Assembly (NCBI RefSeq): GCF_988242995.1
Contig: NZ_OZ547043.1
DNA: 64,000 nt
Reading direction: 5' to 3' (one strand)
The notes below the pieces were generated by a model, which was given only the letters and a program-made list of their open reading frames with translations, did not search any database and had not been told where the DNA came from. Below are positions 50,797 to 62,994 of the stretch, piece after piece (within the stretch, counting starts at the first letter, position 1; each line of letters starts with the position of its first letter). The translations under genes were made by a program, and so were the position numbers.

Positions 50797-50977
50797 AAGA
50801 AATCCTTTCTTAGAGAATTATCGAGGTCCGGTATCATACCGATTGCAATAATGAAATAAGAGCAAACGAAGAAACTTTCAGAATTAGGCCCGGCGGCGCA
50901 GAAAATTTTGCTATTCGCCTCGCAAGAACGGAGAGCCGTCGATTGACACTAAGGGCGGAGTGACATAATTTCAGGAG

Positions 50978-51125
50978 TGAGGGTTAGGGAGAGGTTTCCC
51001 CCTCCCCCTGGTGTTCTTAGTAAGCCTGGAAGCTAATCACTAAGAGTATCACCAGTATGATGACGTGCTTCATCATAACCCTTTCCTTATTAAAAGCCCT
51101 CTTCTCCGGGAGAGGGTTTCCCGTT
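50978..51125 (+). ncRNA. sibA: Sib antitoxin sRNA, unit 1 (SibA-like)
   Basis: Sigma70-like promoter TTGACA (50943-50948), 17-nt spacer, TAATTT (50966-50971); terminator stem ccctct (51097-51102) / agaggg (51111-51116) followed by TTTCCCGTTT; fully antisense to ibsA. Ends are approximate. Confidence 0.6.
51017..51076 (-). CDS. ibsA: Type I toxin Ibs, 19-aa hydrophobic peptide
   Basis: Minus-strand ORF atgatgaagcacgtcatcatactggtgatactcttagtgattagcttccaggcttactaa = MMKHVIILVILLVISFQAY; SD-like aaggaaaggg upstream; not in the ORF track (below 60 aa). Confidence 0.75.
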   Translation of the reverse strand: MMKHVIILVILLVISFQAY

Positions 51126-51312
51126 TCAGCGTCCCGCTGAAATCGTCGGCTTACCTCCTTTCGCCCTGAATGCAGTCTATCGCTAACGCGTGAACAAAAT
51201 AGTTTCCTCTGTGATTATTGCGTAACGACTCGCAAAGAATATTTGCTGGCAGGATCGCAGACTGCAAAGCCTGCGGATTGACAATCTTATCGTGAAGGCA
51301 TAATTTCAGGAG

Positions 51313-51454
51313 TGAGGGTAGAGCGGGGTTTCCCCCGCCCTGGTAGTCTTAGTAAGCGGGGAAGCTTATGACTAAGAGCACCACGATGATGAGTAGCTTC
51401 ATCATGACCCTTTCCTTATTTAAGGCCCCTTCCTCGGGAGGGGCTTTCCCGTTT
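51313..51454 (+). ncRNA. sibB: Sib antitoxin sRNA, unit 2 (SibB-like)
   Basis: TTGACA (51278-51283), 17-nt spacer, TAATTT (51301-51306); terminator stem gcccct (51425-51430) / aggggc (51439-51444) plus T-tract; antisense to ibsB. Ends are approximate. Confidence 0.6.
51349..51405 (-). CDS. ibsB: Type I toxin Ibs, 18-aa hydrophobic peptide
   Basis: Minus-strand ORF atgatgaagctactcatcatcgtggtgctcttagtcataagcttccccgcttactaa = MMKLLIIVVLLVISFPAY. Confidence 0.75.
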   Translation of the reverse strand: MMKLLIIVVLLVISFPAY

Positions 51455-51640
51455 CAGCGTCCCGCTGAAATCGTCGACTTACCTCCTTTCGCCCTGTATG
51501 CAGTCTATCGCTGACTTGCGGATAAAATAGTTTCCAGTGTGATTATTGCGTAACGTCTCGCAAAGAATATTTGCTGGCAGGATCGCAGACTGCAAAGCCT
51601 GCAGATTGACAATCTTATCGTGAAGGCATACTTTCAGGAG

Positions 51641-51782
51641 TGAGGGTAGAGCGGGGTTTCCCCCGCCCTGGTAGTCTTAGTATGCTGGGTAGCTAATCAC
51701 TAAGAGCACCACGATGATGATCCACTTCATCATGACCCTTTCCTTATTTAAGGCCCCTTCCTCGGGAGGGGCTTTCCCGTTT
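51641..51782 (+). ncRNA. Sib-family antitoxin sRNA, unit 3
   Basis: TTGACA (51606-51611), 17-nt spacer, TACTTT (51629-51634); terminator stem gcccct (51753-51758) / aggggc (51767-51772) plus T-tract; antisense to the third ibs ORF. Ends are approximate. Confidence 0.55.
51677..51733 (-). CDS. Ibs-family type I toxin, divergent third copy (18 aa)
   Basis: Minus-strand ORF atgatgaagtggatcatcatcgtggtgctcttagtgattagctacccagcatactaa = MMKWIIIVVLLVISYPAY; same ATGATGAAG start and SD context as units 1 and 2. Confidence 0.65.
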   Translation of the reverse strand: MMKWIIIVVLLVISYPAY

Positions 51783-51940
51783 CAGCGTCCCGCTGAAATC
51801 GTCGGCTTACCTCCTTTCGCCATGCAAGCAGTCTATCGCTAACGCGTAGATAAAATAGTTTCATGTGTTATTACTGGATGCGTGCTCGCAAATGTGCCCG
51901 TCATTCAGACGATTCCCGACAGTGTTTCATAATTCCTCCA

Positions 51941-51958
51941 TTTTTCTCCCTTATTGGC
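51941..51958 (+). promoter_or_regulatory. BaeR box in the mdtA promoter
   Basis: TTTTTCTCCCTTATTGGC matches the BaeR consensus TTTTTCTCCATDATTGGC at 16 of 18 positions, about 55 bp upstream of the mdtA start; preceded by a second TTCTCCA half-site. Confidence 0.6.
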
Positions 51959-52011
51959 TGGCTACACTAGTATCATTCCGCGAAACGTTTCAGGAAGAGA
52001 AACTCTTAACG

Positions 52012-53259
52012 ATGAAAGGCAGTTATAAATCCCGTTGGGTAATCGTAATCGTGGTGGTTATCGCCGCCATCGCCGCATTCTGGTTCTGGCAAGGCCGCAA
52101 TGACTCCCGGAGTGCAGCCCCAGGGGCGACGAAACAAGCGCAGCAATCGCCAGCGGGTGGTCGCCGTGGTATGCGTTCCGGCCCATTAGCCCCGGTTCAG
52201 GCGGCGACCGCCGTAGAACAGGCTGTTCCGCGTTACCTCACCGGGCTTGGCACCATTACCGCCGCTAATACTGTTACGGTGCGCAGCCGCGTGGACGGTC
52301 AACTGATGGCGTTACATTTCCAGGAAGGCCAGCAGGTCAAAGCAGGCGATTTACTGGCAGAAATTGACCCCAGCCAGTTCAAAGTTGCATTAGCACAAGC
52401 CCAGGGCCAACTGGCAAAAGATAAAGCCACGCTTGCCAACGCCCGCCGTGACCTGGCGCGTTATCAGCAACTGGCAAAAACCAATCTCGTATCTCGTCAG
52501 GAACTGGATGCCCAACAAGCGCTGGTCAGTGAAACCGAAGGCACCATTAAGGCTGATGAAGCAAGCGTCGCCAGCGCGCAGCTGCAACTCGACTGGAGCC
52601 GCATCACCGCACCAGTCGATGGTCGCGTTGGTCTCAAGCAGGTTGATGTTGGTAACCAAATCTCCAGTGGTGATACCACCGGGATTGTGGTGATCACCCA
52701 GACGCATCCTATCGATTTGCTCTTTACCCTGCCGGAAAGCGATATCGCTACCGTAGTACAGGCGCAAAAAGCCGGAAAACCGCTGGTTGTTGAAGCCTGG
52801 GATCGCACCAACTCGAAGAAATTAAGTGAAGGCACGCTGTTAAGTCTCGATAACCAAATCGATGCCACTACCGGTACGATTAAAGTGAAAGCACGCTTTA
52901 ATAATCAGGATGATGCGCTGTTTCCCAATCAGTTTGTTAACGCGCGTATGTTAGTCGACACCGAACAAAACGCCGTGGTGATCCCCACCGCCGCTCTGCA
53001 AATGGGCAACGAAGGCCATTTTGTCTGGGTGCTGAATAGCGAAAACAAGGTCAGCAAACATCTGGTGACGCCGGGCATTCAGGACAGTCAGAAAGTGGTG
53101 ATCCGCGCAGGTATTTCTGCGGGCGACCGCGTAGTGACAGACGGCATTGATCGCCTGACCGAAGGGGCGAAAGTGGAAGTAGTGGAAGCCCAGAGCGCCA
53201 CCACTCCGGAAGAGAAAGCCACCAGCCGCGAATACGCGAAAAAAGGAGCACGCTCCTGA
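52012..53259 (+). CDS. mdtA: Multidrug efflux RND membrane fusion protein
   Basis: Conserved start [28 protein letters not shown] at the internal Met (ORF track begins at 51865), giving 415 aa. Confidence 0.92.
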
Positions 53260-56200
53260 TGCAGGTGTTACCCCCGAGCAGCACAGGCGGCCCGTCGCGC
53301 CTGTTTATTATGCGTCCTGTCGCCACCACGCTGCTGATGGTGGCGATCTTACTCGCCGGGATTATCGGTTATCGCGCCCTGCCCGTTTCGGCGCTGCCGG
53401 AAGTGGACTATCCGACCATTCAGGTAGTCACGCTCTACCCAGGTGCGAGCCCGGATGTCATGACCTCTGCCGTTACCGCGCCGCTTGAACGCCAGTTTGG
53501 GCAGATGTCTGGCCTGAAACAGATGTCGTCGCAAAGTTCCGGCGGTGCGTCAGTTATCACCTTACAGTTCCAGCTAACATTACCGCTCGATGTCGCCGAG
53601 CAGGAAGTGCAGGCCGCGATTAACGCTGCGACCAACTTGTTGCCGAGCGATCTGCCTAACCCGCCGGTTTACAGCAAAGTGAACCCGGCAGATCCACCAA
53701 TCATGACGCTCGCCGTCACCTCAACCGCCATGCCAATGACGCAAGTGGAAGATATGGTGGAAACCCGCGTCGCGCAGAAAATCTCGCAGATTTCCGGTGT
53801 CGGCCTGGTGACGCTTTCCGGCGGCCAGCGTCCGGCTGTTCGCGTCAAACTTAACGCTCAGGCGATTGCCGCCCTCGGCCTGACCAGCGAAACCGTACGC
53901 ACCGCTATTACCGGCGCTAACGTTAACTCGGCAAAAGGTAGCCTCGACGGCCCTTCCCGTGCGGTCACACTTTCCGCGAACGACCAGATGCAATCCGCCG
54001 AAGAGTATCGCCAGCTGATCATCGCCTACCAGAACGGCGCGCCGATTCGTCTGGGCGATGTCGCAACCGTAGAGCAAGGTGCAGAAAACAGCTGGCTCGG
54101 CGCATGGGCGAATAAAGAACAGGCCATTGTGATGAATGTTCAGCGCCAGCCCGGTGCTAACATTATCTCCACCGCCGACAGCATCCGGCAGATGCTGCCA
54201 CAGCTCACCGAGAGTCTGCCGAAATCGGTGAAGGTGACGGTACTTTCTGACCGTACCACCAATATCCGCGCATCCGTCGATGATACCCAGTTTGAACTGA
54301 TGATGGCTATCGCGCTGGTAGTCATGATTATCTACCTGTTTTTGCGCAATATTCCGGCGACCATCATTCCTGGCGTCGCAGTGCCGCTGTCGTTAATTGG
54401 CACCTTTGCGGTTATGGTGTTTCTCGATTTTTCAATCAATAACCTGACGCTGATGGCGTTAACTATCGCCACCGGATTCGTGGTCGATGACGCCATCGTG
54501 GTGATCGAGAACATTTCGCGCTATATCGAAAAAGGCGAAAAACCGCTGGCGGCGGCGCTCAAAGGCGCAGGTGAAATCGGCTTTACCATTATCTCGCTGA
54601 CCTTCTCACTGATTGCAGTGTTGATCCCACTGCTATTTATGGGCGATATCGTCGGGCGACTGTTCCGCGAATTTGCAATTACTCTGGCAGTCGCGATTTT
54701 GATCTCAGCCGTGGTGTCGCTGACCCTGACACCGATGATGTGTGCGCGGATGCTCAGCCAGGAGTCGCTGCGTAAACAGAACCGCTTCTCCCGTGCCTCG
54801 GAAAAAATGTTCGACAGGATAATCGCCGCCTATGGTCAGGGACTTGCGAAAGTGCTGAATCATCCGTGGCTGACCTTAAGCGTGGCGCTCAGCACGCTGC
54901 TGCTTAGCGTGCTGTTGTGGGTGTTCATTCCGAAAGGTTTCTTCCCGGTACAGGACAACGGCATTATTCAGGGCACTTTGCAGGCACCGCAATCCAGCTC
55001 CTTTACCAATATGGCCCAGCGGCAACGCCAGGTCGCGGATGTGATTTTGCAAGATCCGGCGGTGCAAAGTCTGACCTCATTTGTTGGCGTTGATGGCACT
55101 AACCCGTCGCTGAACAGTGCGCGTTTGCAGATCAACCTCAAACCGTTGGATGAACGTGATGATCGGGTGCAAAAAGTCATCGCCCGTCTGCAAACGGCGG
55201 TGGATAAAGTGCCGGGCGTCGATCTCTTCCTGCAACCAACGCAGGACCTGACCATCGATACTCAGGTCAGCCGCACCCAGTACCAGTTTACCTTGCAGGC
55301 CACGTCACTGGATGCGCTCAGTACCTGGGTGCCACAGTTGATGGAAAAACTCCAGCAACTGCCACAGCTTTCTGATGTCTCCAGCGACTGGCAGGACAAA
55401 GGGCTGGTGGCGTATGTCAATGTTGATCGCGACAGCGCCAGCCGTCTGGGGATCAGCATGGCGGACGTCGATAACGCCCTGTACAACGCGTTTGGTCAGC
55501 GACTGATTTCCACTATTTATACTCAGGCCAACCAGTATCGCGTGGTGCTGGAGCACAACACCGAAAATACTCCTGGGCTTGCGGCGCTGGATACTATTCG
55601 CCTGACCAGCAGCGACGGCGGCGTGGTGCCGCTAAGCTCAATTGCCAAAATTGAGCAGCGTTTTGCGCCGCTTTCCATCAACCATCTGGATCAGTTCCCG
55701 GTAACGACCATCTCCTTTAACGTGCCGGATAACTATTCGCTGGGCGATGCGGTGCAGGCGATTATGGACACCGAAAAGACGCTGAATCTGCCGGTGGATA
55801 TCACCACGCAGTTCCAGGGCAGCACCCTCGCCTTCCAGTCGGCGTTGGGCAGCACTGTCTGGCTGATTGTCGCGGCGGTGGTGGCGATGTATATCGTGCT
55901 CGGCATTCTGTACGAGAGCTTTATTCACCCGATCACCATTCTCTCGACGCTACCCACCGCAGGGGTCGGCGCACTGCTGGCGTTACTGATTGCCGGTAGC
56001 GAGCTGGATGTGATTGCGATTATCGGCATTATTTTGCTGATCGGTATCGTGAAGAAGAACGCCATCATGATGATCGACTTCGCGCTGGCTGCTGAGCGCG
56101 AGCAAGGCATGTCGCCGCGCGAGGCAATCTACCAGGCTTGTCTGTTACGTTTTCGTCCGATCCTGATGACCACTCTGGCGGCTCTGCTTGGCGCGCTGCC

Positions 56201-56381
56201 GCTGATGTTGAGTACCGGGGTCGGCGCGGAACTGCGTCGTCCGTTAGGTATCGGCATGGTCGGCGGTCTGATTGTCAGCCAGGTGCTGACGCTGTTCACC
56301 ACGCCGGTGATTTATCTGCTGTTCGACCGCCTGGCATTGTGGACCAAAAGTCGCTTTGCTCGCCATGAAGAGGAGGCGTAA
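53259..56381 (+). CDS. mdtB: Multidrug efflux RND permease subunit
   Basis: 1040 aa; [34 protein letters not shown]; AcrB-type 12-TM transporter; start overlaps the mdtA stop. Confidence 0.95.
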
Positions 56382-59300
56382 GTGAAGTTTTTTGCCCTCT
56401 TCATTTACCGCCCGGTGGCGACGATTTTACTGTCGGTCGCCATTACCCTGTGCGGCATACTGGGCTTCCGTATGCTGCCGGTCGCCCCACTGCCGCAGGT
56501 CGATTTTCCGGTGATTATGGTCAGCGCCTCGCTGCCCGGTGCGTCACCAGAAACAATGGCGTCTTCCGTTGCCACGCCGCTGGAACGTTCGCTTGGGCGC
56601 ATTGCCGGGGTTAGTGAAATGACCTCCAGCAGTTCGCTCGGCAGCACGCGCATTATTTTGCAGTTTGATTTTGACCGCGATATCAACGGCGCAGCGCGCG
56701 ATGTGCAAGCGGCGATCAACGCCGCGCAAAGTTTGCTGCCCAGCGGGATGCCAAGCCGTCCGACCTATCGCAAAGCGAACCCGTCGGATGCGCCAATAAT
56801 GATCCTGACGCTGACGTCCGATACTTATTCGCAGGGTGAACTGTACGATTTCGCCTCGACGCAGTTGGCTCCGACGATTTCGCAAATCGACGGTGTCGGT
56901 GATGTCGATGTTGGCGGCAGCTCGCTGCCCGCCGTACGCGTCGGGCTGAATCCGCAGGCGCTGTTTAATCAGGGCGTGTCGCTGGACGATGTGCGCAGCG
57001 CCATCAGCAATGCCAACGTGCGTAAACCGCAGGGGGCGCTGGAAGATAGCACTCACCGCTGGCAGATCCAGACCAACGATGAGCTAAAAACCGCCGCTGA
57101 ATATCAGCCGTTGATTATTCATTACAACAACGGCGGCGCGGTTCGTCTGGGCGATGTGGCGACGGTGACCGACTCGGTGCAGGATGTGCGCAACGCCGGG
57201 ATGACCAACGCCAAACCGGCTATTTTGCTGATGATCCGCAAGCTGCCGGAAGCCAATATTATCCAGACGGTTGACAGCATCCGGGCAAAATTACCGGAGT
57301 TGCAGGAGACCATTCCGGCGGCGATTGATCTGCAAATTGCCCAGGATCGCTCCCCCACTATTCGCGCCTCGCTGGAGGAAGTAGAGCAAACGCTGATTAT
57401 CTCGGTGGCGCTGGTCATTCTGGTGGTCTTTTTATTCCTGCGCTCGGGTCGCGCCACTATTATTCCCGCCGTTGCGGTGCCGGTTTCGCTGATTGGTACG
57501 TTTGCGGCGATGTACCTGTGCGGTTTCAGTCTCAATAACCTGTCGTTAATGGCGCTCACTATTGCTACTGGTTTCGTGGTGGATGACGCCATCGTGGTGC
57601 TGGAAAACATTGCCCGTCACCTGGAAGCGGGGATGAAACCACTACAGGCCGCACTGCAAGGTACTCGCGAAGTCGGTTTTACGGTGCTGTCGATGAGTCT
57701 GTCACTAGTGGCGGTGTTCCTGCCGCTGCTGTTGATGGGCGGATTGCCGGGCCGACTGTTACGCGAATTTGCCGTGACGCTTTCTGTTGCCATTGGGATT
57801 TCGTTGCTGGTTTCCCTGACGCTAACGCCGATGATGTGCGGCTGGATGCTAAAAGCCAGCAAGCCGCGCGAGCAAAAGCGACTGCGTGGTTTTGGTCGCA
57901 TGTTGGTAGCCCTGCAACAAGGCTATGGCAAGTCGCTGAAATGGGTGCTCAATCATACCCGTCTGGTGGGCGTGGTGCTGCTTGGCACCATTGCGCTGAA
58001 TATCTGGCTATATATCTCGATCCCGAAAACCTTCTTCCCGGAGCAGGACACCGGCGTGTTGATGGGCGGGATACAGGCGGATCAGAGTATTTCGTTTCAG
58101 GCGATGCGCGGTAAGTTGCAGGATTTTATGAAAATTATCCGTGACGATCCGGCGGTGGATAATGTCACCGGCTTTACCGGCGGTTCGCGGGTGAACAGTG
58201 GGATGATGTTTATCACCCTCAAGCCACGCGACGAACGCAGCGAAACGGCGCAGCAAATTATCGACCGTCTGCGCGTAAAACTGGCGAAAGAACCGGGGGC
58301 GAATCTGTTCCTGATGGCGGTACAGGATATTCGCGTTGGCGGACGTCAGTCGAACGCCAGTTACCAGTACACGTTGTTATCCGACGACCTGGCGGCACTG
58401 CGCGAATGGGAGCCGAAAATCCGCAAAAAACTGGCAACGTTGCCGGAACTGGCGGACGTGAACTCCGATCAGCAGGATAACGGCGCGGAGATGAATCTGG
58501 TTTACGACCGCGACACCATGGCGCGGCTGGGAATCGACGTGCAGGCCGCCAACAGCCTGTTAAATAACGCCTTCGGTCAGCGGCAAATCTCGACCATTTA
58601 CCAGCCGATGAACCAGTACAAAGTGGTGATGGAAGTGGATCCGCGCTATACCCAGGACATCAGCGCGCTGGAAAAAATGTTCGTTATCAATAACGAAGGA
58701 AAAGCGATCCCGCTGTCGTATTTCGCTAAATGGCAACCGGCGAATGCTCCGCTGTCGGTGAATCATCAGGGATTATCGGCGGCCTCGACCATTTCGTTTA
58801 ACCTGCCGACCGGGAAATCGCTCTCGGACGCCAGTGCGGCGATCGATCGCGCAATGACCCAGCTTGGTGTGCCTTCGACGGTGCGCGGTAGTTTTGCCGG
58901 CACGGCGCAGGTGTTCCAGGAGACGATGAACTCGCAGGTGATCCTGATTATCGCCGCCATCGCCACGGTGTATATCGTGCTGGGTATCCTTTACGAGAGT
59001 TACGTACATCCGCTGACGATTCTCTCCACCCTGCCCTCGGCGGGCGTTGGAGCGCTGTTGGCGCTGGAGCTGTTCAATGCCCCGTTCAGCCTAATCGCCC
59101 TGATAGGGATCATGCTATTAATCGGCATCGTGAAGAAAAACGCCATTATGATGGTCGATTTTGCGCTTGAAGCCCAACGGCACGGTAACCTGACGCCGCA
59201 GGAAGCTATTTTCCAGGCCTGTCTGCTGCGTTTTCGCCCGATTATGATGACTACCCTGGCGGCGCTGTTTGGTGCGCTGCCGCTGGTATTGTCGGGCGGT

Positions 59301-59459
59301 GACGGCTCGGAGTTGCGGCAACCATTGGGGATCACCATTGTCGGCGGTCTGGTCATGAGCCAGCTTCTGACGCTGTATACCACGCCGGTGGTGTATCTCT
59401 TTTTCGACCGTCTGCGGCTGCGTTTTTCGCGTAAACCTAAACAAGCGGTAACCGAGTAA
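56382..59459 (+). CDS. mdtC: Multidrug efflux RND permease subunit
   Basis: 1025 aa; GTG start preceded by gaggagg; [29 protein letters not shown]. Confidence 0.95.
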
Positions 59460-60875
59460 ATGACAGATCTTCCCGACAGCACCCGCTGGCAATTGTGGAT
59501 TGTGGCTTTCGGCTTCTTTATGCAGTCGCTGGACACCACCATCGTTAACACCGCGCTTCCCTCAATGGCGCAAAGCCTCGGGGAAAGTCCGTTGCATATG
59601 CACATGGTCATTGTCTCTTATGTACTGACCGTGGCGGTGATGTTGCCTGCCAGCGGCTGGCTGGCGGACAAAGTCGGCGTACGCAATATTTTCTTTACCG
59701 CCATCGTGCTGTTTACTCTCGGTTCACTGTTTTGCGCGCTTTCCGGCACGCTGAACGAACTGTTGCTGGCACGCGCGTTACAGGGCGTTGGCGGTGCGAT
59801 GATGGTGCCGGTCGGCAGATTGACGGTGATGAAAATCGTACCGCGCGAGCAATATATGGCGGCGATGACCTTTGTCACACTGCCCGGTCAGGTCGGTCCG
59901 CTGCTGGGTCCGGCGCTCGGCGGTCTGCTGGTGGAGTACGCATCGTGGCACTGGATCTTTTTGATCAACATTCCGGTGGGGATTATCGGTGCGATCGCAA
60001 CACTAATGTTGATGCCGAACTACACCATGCAGACGCGGCGCTTCGATCTCTCCGGCTTTTTATTGCTGGCGGTTGGTATGGCGGTATTAACCCTGGCGCT
60101 GGACGGCAGTAAAGGTACAGGTTTATCGCCGCTGGCGATTGCTGGCCTGGTCGCAGTTGGCGTGGTAGCACTGGTGCTTTATTTGCTGCACGCCAGAAAT
60201 AACAACCGCGCCCTGTTCAGTCTGAAACTGTTCCGCACTCGTACCTTTTCGCTGGGCCTGGCGGGGAGTTTTGCCGGACGTATCGGTAGCGGCATGTTGC
60301 CCTTTATGACGCCGGTTTTCCTGCAAATTGGCCTTGGCTTCTCACCGTTTCATGCCGGACTGATGATGATCCCGATGGTGCTTGGCAGCATGGGGATGAA
60401 GCGAATTGTTGTACAGGTGGTGAATCGCTTTGGTTATCGTCGGGTGCTGGTGGCGACCACGCTGGGTCTGTCGCTGGTCACCCTGTTGTTTATGACCACC
60501 GCGCTGCTGGGCTGGTACTACGTTTTACCGTTCGTCCTGTTTTTACAAGGAATGGTCAACTCAACGCGTTTCTCCTCCATGAACACCCTGACGCTGAAAG
60601 ATCTCCCGGACAATCTGGCGAGCAGCGGAAACAGCCTGCTGTCGATGATTATGCAATTGTCGATGAGTATCGGCGTCACCATCGCCGGGCTGTTGCTGGG
60701 GCTTTTTGGTTCGCAGCATGTCAGCGTCGACAGCGGCACCACACAAACCGTCTTTATGTACACCTGGCTTAGCATGGCGTTTATCATCGCCCTTCCGGCG
60801 TTCATCTTTGCCAGAGTGCCGAACGATACGCATCAAAATGTAGCTATTTCGCGGCGAAAAAGGAGCGCGCAATGA
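59460..60875 (+). CDS. mdtD: MFS-family efflux transporter
   Basis: 471 aa; [41 protein letters not shown] (14-TM MFS). Confidence 0.92.
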
Positions 60876-62275
60876 AGTTCTGGCGACCCGGTATTACCGG
60901 CAAACTGTTTCTGGCGATTTTCGCCACCTGCATTGTCTTGCTGATCAGTATGCACTGGGCGGTGCGTATCAGTTTTGAGCGTGGCTTTATTGATTACATC
61001 AAGCATGGTAATGAACAGCGATTACAACTGTTAAGTGATGCGCTTGGCGAGCAGTATGCGCAGCATGGCAACTGGCGCTTCCTGCGCAACAATGATCGCT
61101 TTGTCTTTCAGATCCTGCGTTCATTTGAACACGAAAATTCGGAAGATAAACCCGGCCCGGGTATGCCGCCGCACGGCTGGCGTACCCAGTTCTGGGTGGT
61201 TGATCAAAACAACAAAGTGCTGGTTGGTCCGCGAGCGCCGATTCCACCTGACGGTACACGGCGACCCATTCTGGTCAACGGTGCGGAAGTGGGTGCGGTG
61301 ATTGCCTCCCCTGTTGAGCGACTGACCCGCAATACTGATATCAATTTCGATAAACAACAGCGGCAAACCAGCTGGCTGATTGTCGCCCTGGCTACGTTAC
61401 TCGCGGCACTCGCCACCTTTCTGCTGGCGCGTGGTCTGTTGGCCCCGGTCAAACGGCTGGTGGACGGCACGCACAAACTGGCGGCGGGCGATTTCACTAC
61501 CCGCGTGACACCCACCAGTGAAGATGAACTGGGCAAACTGGCGCAAGACTTCAACCAGCTTGCCAGCACGCTGGAGAAAAACCAGCAAATGCGGCGCGAT
61601 TTTATGGCCGATATTTCTCACGAACTGCGTACGCCATTAGCGGTGCTGCGCGGTGAACTGGAAGCCATTCAGGATGGCGTGCGTAAATTCACGCCGGAGA
61701 CGGTGGCGTCTTTACAGGCGGAGGTCGGTACACTGACCAAACTGGTTGACGATCTCCATCAGTTGTCGATGTCTGATGAAGGCGCTCTCGCCTATCAAAA
61801 AGCACCGGTAGATTTGATCCCACTGCTGGAAGTAGCGGGCGGCGCATTTCGCGAACGATTCGCCAGCCGTGGCCTGAAACTGCAATTTTCCCTGCCAGAC
61901 AGTATTACCGTATTTGGCGATCGCGACCGTTTAATGCAGTTATTCAATAACTTACTGGAAAACAGCCTGCGCTACACTGACAGCGGCGGTAGCCTGAAAA
62001 TCTCTGCCGAGCAGCACGACAAAACGGTGCGACTGACCTTTGCCGACAGCGCGCCGGGCGTCAGTGACGATCAGCTACAAAAATTGTTTGAACGTTTTTA
62101 TCGCACCGAAGGTTCCCGCAACCGAGCCAGCGGCGGTTCCGGGCTGGGGCTGGCGATTTGCCTGAACATTGTTGAAGCACATAATGGTCGCATTATTGCT
62201 GCCCATTCGCCTTTTGGCGGGGTAAGCATTACAGTAGAGTTACCGCTGGAACGGGATTTACAGAGAGAAGTATGA
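60872..62275 (+). CDS. baeS: Envelope-stress sensor histidine kinase
   Basis: 467 aa; two TM segments, HAMP region, H-box ISHELRTPL, ATPase G-box GGSGLGLAI; overlaps the mdtD stop by 4 nt. Confidence 0.92.
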
Positions 62276-62994
62276 CCGAGTTACCAATCGACGAGAACAC
62301 ACCGCGTATTTTGATCGTGGAAGATGAACCAAAGCTGGGGCAGTTGCTCATTGATTATCTGCGTGCTGCGAGCTATGCGCCGACGCTTATCAGCCACGGC
62401 GATCAGGTACTGCCGTATGTGCGCCAGACACCACCGGATCTGATCCTGCTGGATCTGATGCTCCCTGGCACCGATGGCCTGACGCTGTGCCGGGAAATTC
62501 GTCGTTTTTCTGACATTCCGATCGTGATGGTGACAGCAAAAATCGAAGAGATCGACCGCCTGCTGGGGCTGGAAATTGGCGCTGATGACTACATCTGCAA
62601 ACCGTACAGCCCACGGGAAGTGGTAGCGCGCGTCAAAACCATTTTGCGCCGTTGCAAACCGCAGCGTGAGTTGCAGCAACAGGATGCTGAAAGCCCGTTG
62701 ATTATCGACGAAGGTCGTTTTCAGGCTTCCTGGCGCGGAAAAATGCTTGACCTGACGCCTGCGGAATTTCGTCTGTTGAAAACGCTCTCTCATGAACCAG
62801 GAAAAGTGTTCTCCCGCGAGCAATTGCTCAATCATCTTTATGACGACTACCGCGTAGTAACCGACCGCACCATCGACAGCCACATTAAAAACCTGCGTCG
62901 CAAGCTGGAATCTCTCGACGCCGAACAGTCCTTTATCCGTGCCGTTTACGGCGTCGGTTACCGCTGGGAAGCCGACGCCTGCCGCATCGTTTAA
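62272..62994 (+). CDS. baeR: OmpR-family response regulator
   Basis: 240 aa; receiver domain ([14 protein letters not shown]...[14 protein letters not shown]) with winged-helix C-terminus; overlaps the baeS stop by 4 nt. Confidence 0.95.

Follow-up and report, generated by a model that had tools for sequence, protein, structure and literature searches.

The 18-nt motif TTTTTCTCCCTTATTGGC, read directly from the plus strand at positions 51941-51958 of the 64,000-nt stretch of DNA analyzed here (the window), is very probably the BaeR operator already established for the sigma-70 promoter that drives the E. coli mdtABCD-baeSR operon. We recognize the known BaeR-activated, autoregulated promoter of this operon by its sequence identity with K-12, by the BaeR ChIP-exo peak over it and by its BaeR-dependent induction in K-12. 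Previous work has described the mdtA BaeR box, the autoregulated operon and the location of the SibA/SibB repeats, between yegL and mdtA. The mdtA (yegM) promoter of K-12 with its BaeR box was reportedly described by Baranova and Nikaido (2002) and Nagakubo (2002).

The gene order is yegL on the minus strand, three Sib/Ibs units and then mdtA. The following features frame the box:

from 50796 (start of the coding region), minus strand: yegL, upstream of the three Sib/Ibs units
51941-51958, plus strand: BaeR box TTTTTCTCCCTTATTGGC, 17 of 18 positions as in the Nishino consensus in its quoted form
52012-53259, plus strand: mdtA (NCBIfam)
53259-56381, plus strand: mdtB (NCBIfam)
56382-59459, plus strand: mdtC (NCBIfam)
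59460-60875, plus strand: mdtD (NCBIfam)
60872-62275, plus strand: baeS (NCBIfam)
62272-62994, plus strand: baeR (NCBIfam)

The operon is complete. All six genes (52012-62994) exceeded the cut-offs of curated NCBIfam models, BaeS and BaeR as equivalogs, and by NCBIfam score the nearest paralogues of BaeR were CreB and PhoB. The mdtA start codon (ATG at 52012) was taken from the RefSeq annotation of a 100%-identical strain. The sequence-only reading had placed the box approximately 55 bp upstream of mdtA and approximately 160 bp downstream of the third Sib terminator, and both distances were borne out: 53 nt separate the end of the box from the ATG, and 159 nt lie between the end of the terminator tail (51782) and the box.

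The box belongs to the promoter region of a BaeR regulon member, mdtA, with which the mdtABCD-baeSR operon begins. Compared to the 18-nt BaeR consensus TTTTTCTCCATDATTGGC (Nishino 2005, as quoted in PMC3799227 and PMC3915751), TTTTTCTCCCTTATTGGC has a single mismatch, and it was the sole site in the 64-kb window with at most three mismatches to the consensus so quoted, while the expectation for such sites in the shuffled window was 0.14. For the motif being a functionless chance match, nothing speaks beyond the recurrence of short motifs in general. None of 100 dinucleotide shuffles of the window contained a match with at most one mismatch to the quoted consensus, TTTTTCTCCCTTATTGGC sits exactly upstream of the cognate operon, and in K-12, BaeR occupies the identical sequence. 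These three observations refute chance as the origin of the box and leave it a negligible probability.

All functional data on binding and induction come from K-12. Downstream of the last Sib unit, the window coordinate equals the NC_000913.3 coordinate minus 2,102,004, as checked base by base. Between 51749 and 52014, the window differs from K-12 MG1655 at three of 266 bp (51751, 51863 and 51917), none of which is located within the BaeR box, the -10 region or the 5' UTR. The K-12 mdtA promoter is the same in its box, -10 block, 5' UTR, distance to the ATG and operon content; the difference is that K-12 has two Sib/Ibs units and the window strain three. The window is E. coli DNA: the region 50800-52100 is 100% identical to E. 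coli O158:H23 CFIAFB20140388 and is present in 5,419 of 5,426 complete E. coli genomes.

BaeR ChIP-exo in MG1655 yielded two peaks upstream of mdtA (PMC7657598 Data Set S2), which correspond to the following positions:

51927-51963, unstranded: equivalent of BaeR ChIP-exo peak_5 (MG1655 2153931-2153967; PMC7657598 Data Set S2), identical in sequence, covering the box
51968-51994: equivalent of BaeR ChIP-exo peak_6 (MG1655 2153972-2153998; PMC7657598), covering the core promoter

BaeR binding of the box is thus taken by proxy from an MG1655 peak over identical sequence. Deletion of baeR in K-12 lowered the mdtA level 16-fold (log2 -4.0) in the presence of ethanol, and mdtA, mdtB, mdtC, iceT (mdtD) and baeS fell by log2 -3.4 to -4.6 (PMC7657598). 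In unstimulated K-12, the mdtA level was unchanged by the deletion (log2FC +0.07), showing that its basal level is BaeR independent (PMC7657598). The claim that the mdtABCD-baeSR promoter, marked by a BaeR box, directly follows the Sib/Ibs array is therefore upheld by a K-12-identical sequence under a ChIP-exo peak.

BaeR is a response regulator of the OmpR/PhoB family and is encoded at the end of the mdtABCD-baeSR operon. Within its control region, two elements stand out:

51933-51952, plus strand: tandem 10-bp direct repeat TTCCTCCATT (51933-51942) and TTTCTCCCTT (51943-51952), identical at 8 of 10 positions
51962-51977, plus strand: -10 block CTACACTAGTATCATT, nearly invariant (conservation 0.98), with the -10 candidates inside

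The tandem repeats at 51933-51952 show the periodicity of approximately 10 to 11 bp that characterizes an OmpR/PhoB-type class II site, and we infer that the two copies are putative BaeR half-sites. Of these copies, the 18-mer of the sequence-only reading includes just the promoter-proximal one. Deep conservation is seen for the upstream copy; its CTCCA core (51936-51940) lies inside ChIP-exo peak_5 and is shared with published BaeR sites, which have the element CTNCA in common as they are quoted in PMC3799227.

As the -10 element we favor TATCAT (51971-51976). This choice would place the -35 position at 51948-51953, inside the box, and predicts a transcription start site (TSS) near 51983. The TSS table of Kim 2012 lists no TSS for the mdtA promoter; what it assigns to mdtA, by an automated procedure, is a 5' end internal to SibA. 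Cappable-seq supplements have no entry at the mdtA promoter coordinates. A search of 51783-52011 for the CpxR box GTAAA-N5-GTAAA returned no match with two or fewer mismatches.

The following mechanism is proposed. Upon envelope stress, BaeS would phosphorylate BaeR, and BaeR~P would bind, most likely as a head-to-tail dimer, to the two 10-bp repeats at 51933-51952, extending to ATTGGC. Sitting over a poor -35 region, it would recruit RNA polymerase to the conserved -10 element TATCAT, transcription would start near 51983, and the operon including baeSR would be induced, resulting in positive autoregulation. The adjacent Sib/Ibs unit would be a separate module, the antitoxin RNA of which would end at its own hairpin approximately 160 bp upstream of the box, while its toxin promoter would fire in the direction opposite to mdtA.

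Operators of the OmpR/PhoB family include pho boxes, OmpR F sites and the CreB "cre tag" TTCAC-N6-TTCAC. Like them, the mdtA site has head-to-tail repeats of approximately 10 to 11 bp beside or over a predicted weak -35 region; unlike them, its half-site is TTYCTCC. The MG1655 boxes of spy (TTTTTCTCCATAATTGGC) and acrD (TTTTTCTCCACGATTGGC) are nearly identical to the mdtA box and differ from it at 2 to 3 positions. All three boxes are located upstream of BaeR regulon genes and share TTTTTCTCC-N3-ATTGGC, but the distance from the end of the box to the start codon differs (53 nt in mdtA, 70 in acrD and 139 in spy). At spy, furthermore, the 18-mer is not under a published BaeR ChIP-exo peak; one peak falls on a distal TCTNCANAA pair and the other on the core promoter (PMC7657598). 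In the spy upstream region (L083 10767-10850), the distal pair covered by a peak reads TCTTCATAA-TC-TCTGCAAAA, and the perfect 18-nt box TTTTTCTCCATAATTGGC lies between the two peaks and is covered by neither.

Two further observations concern the mdtA leader. A perfect 10-bp palindrome, GAAACGTTTC, is located at 51982-51991, on the predicted mdtA start and within the second ChIP-exo peak; it is kept in Escherichia, Citrobacter and Klebsiella and partly elsewhere. The spacing between the end of the conserved Shine-Dalgarno-like GGAAGAG and the mdtA ATG is unusually long at 12 nt (51993-52011); even so, TTTCAGGAnGAGA in the 5' UTR is conserved across the family.

Conservation was measured in an alignment of the 140-bp mdtA upstream regions of 80 enterobacterial species, each represented by one genome. 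The -10 block, CTA(A/C)ACTAGTATCATT (51962-51977), showed a conservation of 0.98 across the 80 species, both with and without a Sib unit. Further upstream, the mean column conservation of 51902-51946 was 0.85-0.90 in both species groups. The first six bases of the 18-mer are well conserved (0.92-0.95; TTTTTC, 0.95 in species without Sib), whereas its last twelve bases (51947-51958) reached only 0.63-0.71 and were recognizable only in Escherichia and, more weakly, in Citrobacter. Relative to the consensus in its quoted form, the box had 1 to 2 mismatches in 7 of 7 Escherichia loci and mostly 3 to 6 mismatches, at the same position, in Citrobacter; in the remaining genera, TTTTTC is all of the box that is kept. 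Since 51947-51958 is poorly conserved outside these two genera, the 18-mer as such appears not to be the ancestral operator.

The conserved sequence upstream of the box is the following:

51902-51932, plus strand: deeply conserved block ATTCAGACGATTCCCGACAGTGTTTCATAAT, which includes the promoter-like TTCAGA-18-CATAAT (51904-51933)

It is conceivable, if somewhat short of an even chance, that the functional, ancestral operator is not the 18-mer but 51902-51946 (ATTCAGAC-ATTCCnGAC ... TTTCATAWTTCCTCCATTTTT), to which additional BaeR protomers or a second regulator would bind, and that the 3' part of the 18-mer, CTCCCTTATTGGC, represents lineage-specific affinity tuning in Escherichia and Citrobacter. 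Such an operator would extend the main explanation rather than exclude it. The difference in column conservation just described points to it, as do the CTCCA core (51936-51940), which fits the CTNCA element as quoted better than the CTCCC of the 18-mer does, the start of ChIP-exo peak_5 at 51927, 14 bp upstream of the 18-mer, and TTC/TTG motifs recurring approximately every 10 bp (51904, 51913, 51933, 51944 and 51954). The upstream BaeR peak of spy, located on the distal TCTNCANAA pair and not on the 18-mer, is also consistent with it. However, peak_5 does not reach 51902-51926, and TTTTTCTCC and ATTGGC are almost exact in the mdtA, spy and acrD boxes, arguing that in E. coli the 18-mer is read as a unit. 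Moreover, the block 51902-51932 could instead act as a weak second promoter (TTCAGA-18-CATAAT) or resemble an UP element in function.

Tentatively, then, the 18-nt BaeR box could be the lineage-specific, promoter-proximal part of a control region of approximately 60 bp with 51902-51946 as its ancestral element (ATTCAGAC/ATTCCnGAC, TTCCTCCATTTTT). Equally tentatively, this element might be read across the Enterobacteriaceae by extra BaeR protomers or by an unrecognized second regulator. Judged from the alignment, what would be modestly new is that the 18-nt consensus appears to be the Escherichia/Citrobacter version, while the longer upstream block appears to be family-wide. The family-wide block was not stated in the literature found by a search that did not extend to the primary footprinting work. 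A scan with the 18-nt E. coli consensus would miss the mdtA promoter in most other genera, because conservation of the 3' part of the 18-mer, unlike that of the upstream block, does not extend past Escherichia and Citrobacter. The comparative result could be of use for BaeR regulon prediction outside E. coli.

The block 51902-51932, with the family consensus ATTCAGACnATTCCAGACAGT..TTTCATAW, is conserved across the 80 species, whether or not they have a Sib unit. Most of the block falls outside the K-12 BaeR ChIP-exo peak, and it contains a near-direct repeat, ATTCAGAC/ATTCC(A)GAC. We also considered TTCAGA-18-CATAAT (51904-51933) as the relic of a fourth Sib promoter. This was rejected, since homology to the repeat unit ends near 51890 and the block is conserved also in genera without Sib.

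The Sib/Ibs units reportedly belong to the QUAD repeats, the SibA/SibB-IbsA/IbsB type I toxin-antitoxin pairs said to have been described by Fozo in 2008 and Han in 2010. Those of K-12 occupy the same place between yegL and mdtA and likewise have antisense ibs ORFs of 18-19 aa; the window differs by its copy number of three. The three plus-strand hits to Rfam SIB_RNA (RF00113) scored 149.5, 143.5 and 139.2 bits, compared to a gathering score of 56. The array comprises the following features:

50943-51454, plus strand: Sib units 1 and 2 together
50943-51091 (Rfam hit), plus strand: Sib unit 1, TSS 50979; ibsA at 51017-51076 on the minus strand
51278-51420 (Rfam hit), plus strand: Sib unit 2, TSS 51314; IbsB-identical ORF at 51349-51405 on the minus strand
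51606-51782, plus strand: third Sib unit (Rfam hit 51606-51748, 139 bits)
51606-51611 and 51629-51634, plus strand: third Sib promoter, -35 TTGACA and -10 TACTTT
51642, plus strand: third Sib TSS, by homology to the mapped SibB TSS (Kim 2012)
51677-51733, minus strand: third-unit ibs toxin ORF (MMKWIIIVVLLVISYPAY)
51823 and 51830-51835, minus strand: third-unit ibs promoter, TSS 51823 and -10 TAGACT, directed away from mdtA, 118 bp from the box

In all three units, the ibs ORFs encode hydrophobic peptides of 18-19 aa and are fully antisense to the Sib RNA. Unit 1 corresponds to SibA (97% identity) and unit 2 to SibB (99%), while unit 3 is a SibB-like paralogue (93%). The third-unit ibs promoter (51823-51835) is the same as the K-12 ibsB region except for one SNP, and the ibsB TSS was mapped at 2151851 in NC_000913.2 (Kim 2012). 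The number of Sib units at the locus varies: one in E. albertii and E. whittamii, two in K-12, three in the window and up to four in some E. coli. Arrays of three are common: in an evenly spaced sample of 30 out of 5,422 E. coli records, three units in one piece occurred in 12 and two units in another 12, with single cases of one or four units.

The third Sib unit is followed by the sequence that separates it from the mdtA promoter:

51750-51775, plus strand: third Sib terminal hairpin, 11-bp stem, dG -19.3 kcal/mol
up to 51782, plus strand: third Sib tail UUUCCCGUUU, a broken U-tract
51779-51799, plus strand: another perfect hairpin, UUUCAGCG UCC CGCUGAAA, immediately following the Sib terminator
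51893, plus strand: equivalent of an orphan RNA 3' end (MG1655 2153897; PMC7815308), 48 bp upstream of the box

The 3' end of the third Sib unit has the G+C-rich hairpin of a canonical intrinsic terminator but not its U-tract (at least 5 U among the 8 nt directly after the stem), the tail being UUUCCCGUUU, and a terminator scan found no plus-strand terminator in 50800-52100. Nevertheless, Sib RNAs have defined 3' ends in K-12 (Term-seq, PMC7815308; RefSeq sibB coordinates). The second hairpin is part of the repeat unit and is also present, on the other strand, in the ibs 5' UTR.

In every Escherichia, Citrobacter and Pseudocitrobacter locus examined, the junction had a fixed length, with the Sib unit ending 230 to 233 bp before the mdtA ATG; in Kluyvera, the distance was 206 bp in two species and 334 bp in a third. 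No Sib unit was detectable at the mdtA locus in 47 of the 80 species, including Enterobacter, Klebsiella, Raoultella, Lelliottia, Atlantibacter, Cedecea and Buttiauxella, and in these 47 species, the mdtA -10 block and the upstream block were equally conserved. Because they keep the promoter blocks, we conclude that the mdtA promoter is independent of the Sib unit and that the junction is old and stable. K-12 SibB occupies exactly the place of the "third" unit and has the same downstream sequence. The mdtA-proximal junction matches that of K-12 and its conservation spans genera, so the extra Sib unit creates no new regulatory situation. The useful outcome is thus a negative one: the additional unit changes nothing at the mdtA junction, and there is little new in it for E. 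coli biology.

The sequence-only reading had also thought it conceivable that transcription from the third Sib unit reads through into mdtA or interferes with it. Put more fully, a strong constitutive promoter of the proximal Sib unit would leak past its terminator and either feed mdtABCD-baeSR or interfere with the BaeR promoter. We consider this unlikely. It is true that Sib and mdtA are codirectional and only approximately 160 bp apart, and that the strong Sib hairpin is followed by a broken U-tract (UUUCCCGUUU) and was missed by the scan. Furthermore, K-12 Term-seq detected a weak "orphan" plus-strand 3' end at 2153897 (PMC7815308 supplementary file 1), which lies 111 nt past the Sib terminator tail and has no TSS of its own upstream in the table of Kim 2012. 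However, with 789 and 1,217 reads compared to 487,446 and 491,701 for SibB, this end amounts to 0.16-0.25% of the SibB signal (PMC7815308), and it stops 48 bp before the box. A second perfect hairpin also follows the terminator. Most simply, the orphan 3' end belongs to a rare read-through transcript that stops short of the promoter. As an intrinsic terminator, position 51893 was rejected: no terminator-like fold precedes it, and the fold of 51783-51900 was no better than those of shuffled sequences (z = -0.23).

The basal, BaeR-independent mdtA expression in unstimulated cells (log2FC 0.07) could also be taken in favor of leakage, as could the effect of Rho inhibition. A Rho region was assigned to 2154517 (window 52513), approximately 500 nt into mdtA, with a Rho score of 7.3, and bicyclomycin raised the reads in the mdtA body 7.3-fold (PMC7815308). 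However, the upstream counting window of this score includes SibB itself, so the score says little about where the reads originate. In uninduced K-12, Rho seems to end transcription prematurely after it has entered mdtA.

Against leakage speaks also that the promoter blocks are equally conserved where there is no Sib unit, and a junction distance fixed since before the Escherichia-Citrobacter split argues against harmful interference. In addition, sibB and ibsB, like sibA and ibsA, are absent from the BaeR-dependent genes listed in the BaeR data sets, in which small RNAs may not have been scored. Neither the K-12 Term-seq data nor the TSS table of Kim 2012 contains a TSS or 3' end linking Sib to mdtA, and the TERMITe supplements have no entry for sibA, sibB or mdtA. 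Given the poor U-tract, the BaeR-independent basal level and the effect of Rho inhibition, a trace contribution is possible. Sib read-through of this kind, stopped approximately 50 bp before the box, might account for the BaeR-independent basal expression and so prime the autoregulatory loop, a reading we regard as less likely than that of the control region of approximately 60 bp. What stands of the sequence-only reading is thus the motif as a BaeR box and promoter. A special role of the third unit is not supported, and a meaningful read-through or interference is largely unsupported, as the same junction is present in K-12 and gives rise to a trace 3' end only.

Three minor observations concern the Sib units. 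In K-12 Term-seq, the dominant 3' ends of SibB and SibA are at 2153749 and 2153420 (window 51745 and 51088), where ...CCUU closes the long stem, upstream of the terminal hairpin and not at the annotated 2153781 and 2153454. This suggests that the abundant species is a processed RNA of approximately 105-110 nt. The spacers between the Sib units (51222-51236 and 51550-51564) contain GTAACGNCTCGCAAA, two mismatches from the CpxR motif GTAAA-N5-GTAAA, and the motif is degenerate (GCGTGCTCGCAAA) in the last spacer, which precedes mdtA. These CpxR-like sites are probably due to chance, since 78 were found in the window and 53 were expected. Finally, the mdtA-proximal unit (51642-51777) differs from MG1655 sibB at 10 of 136 positions, which cluster at approximately 51683-51698 and 51721-51725, and its Ibs peptide is MMKWIIIVVLLVISYPAY compared to MMKLLIIVVLLVISFPAY. 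On the sequence comparison, these differences would fit a diverged cognate Sib/Ibs pair.
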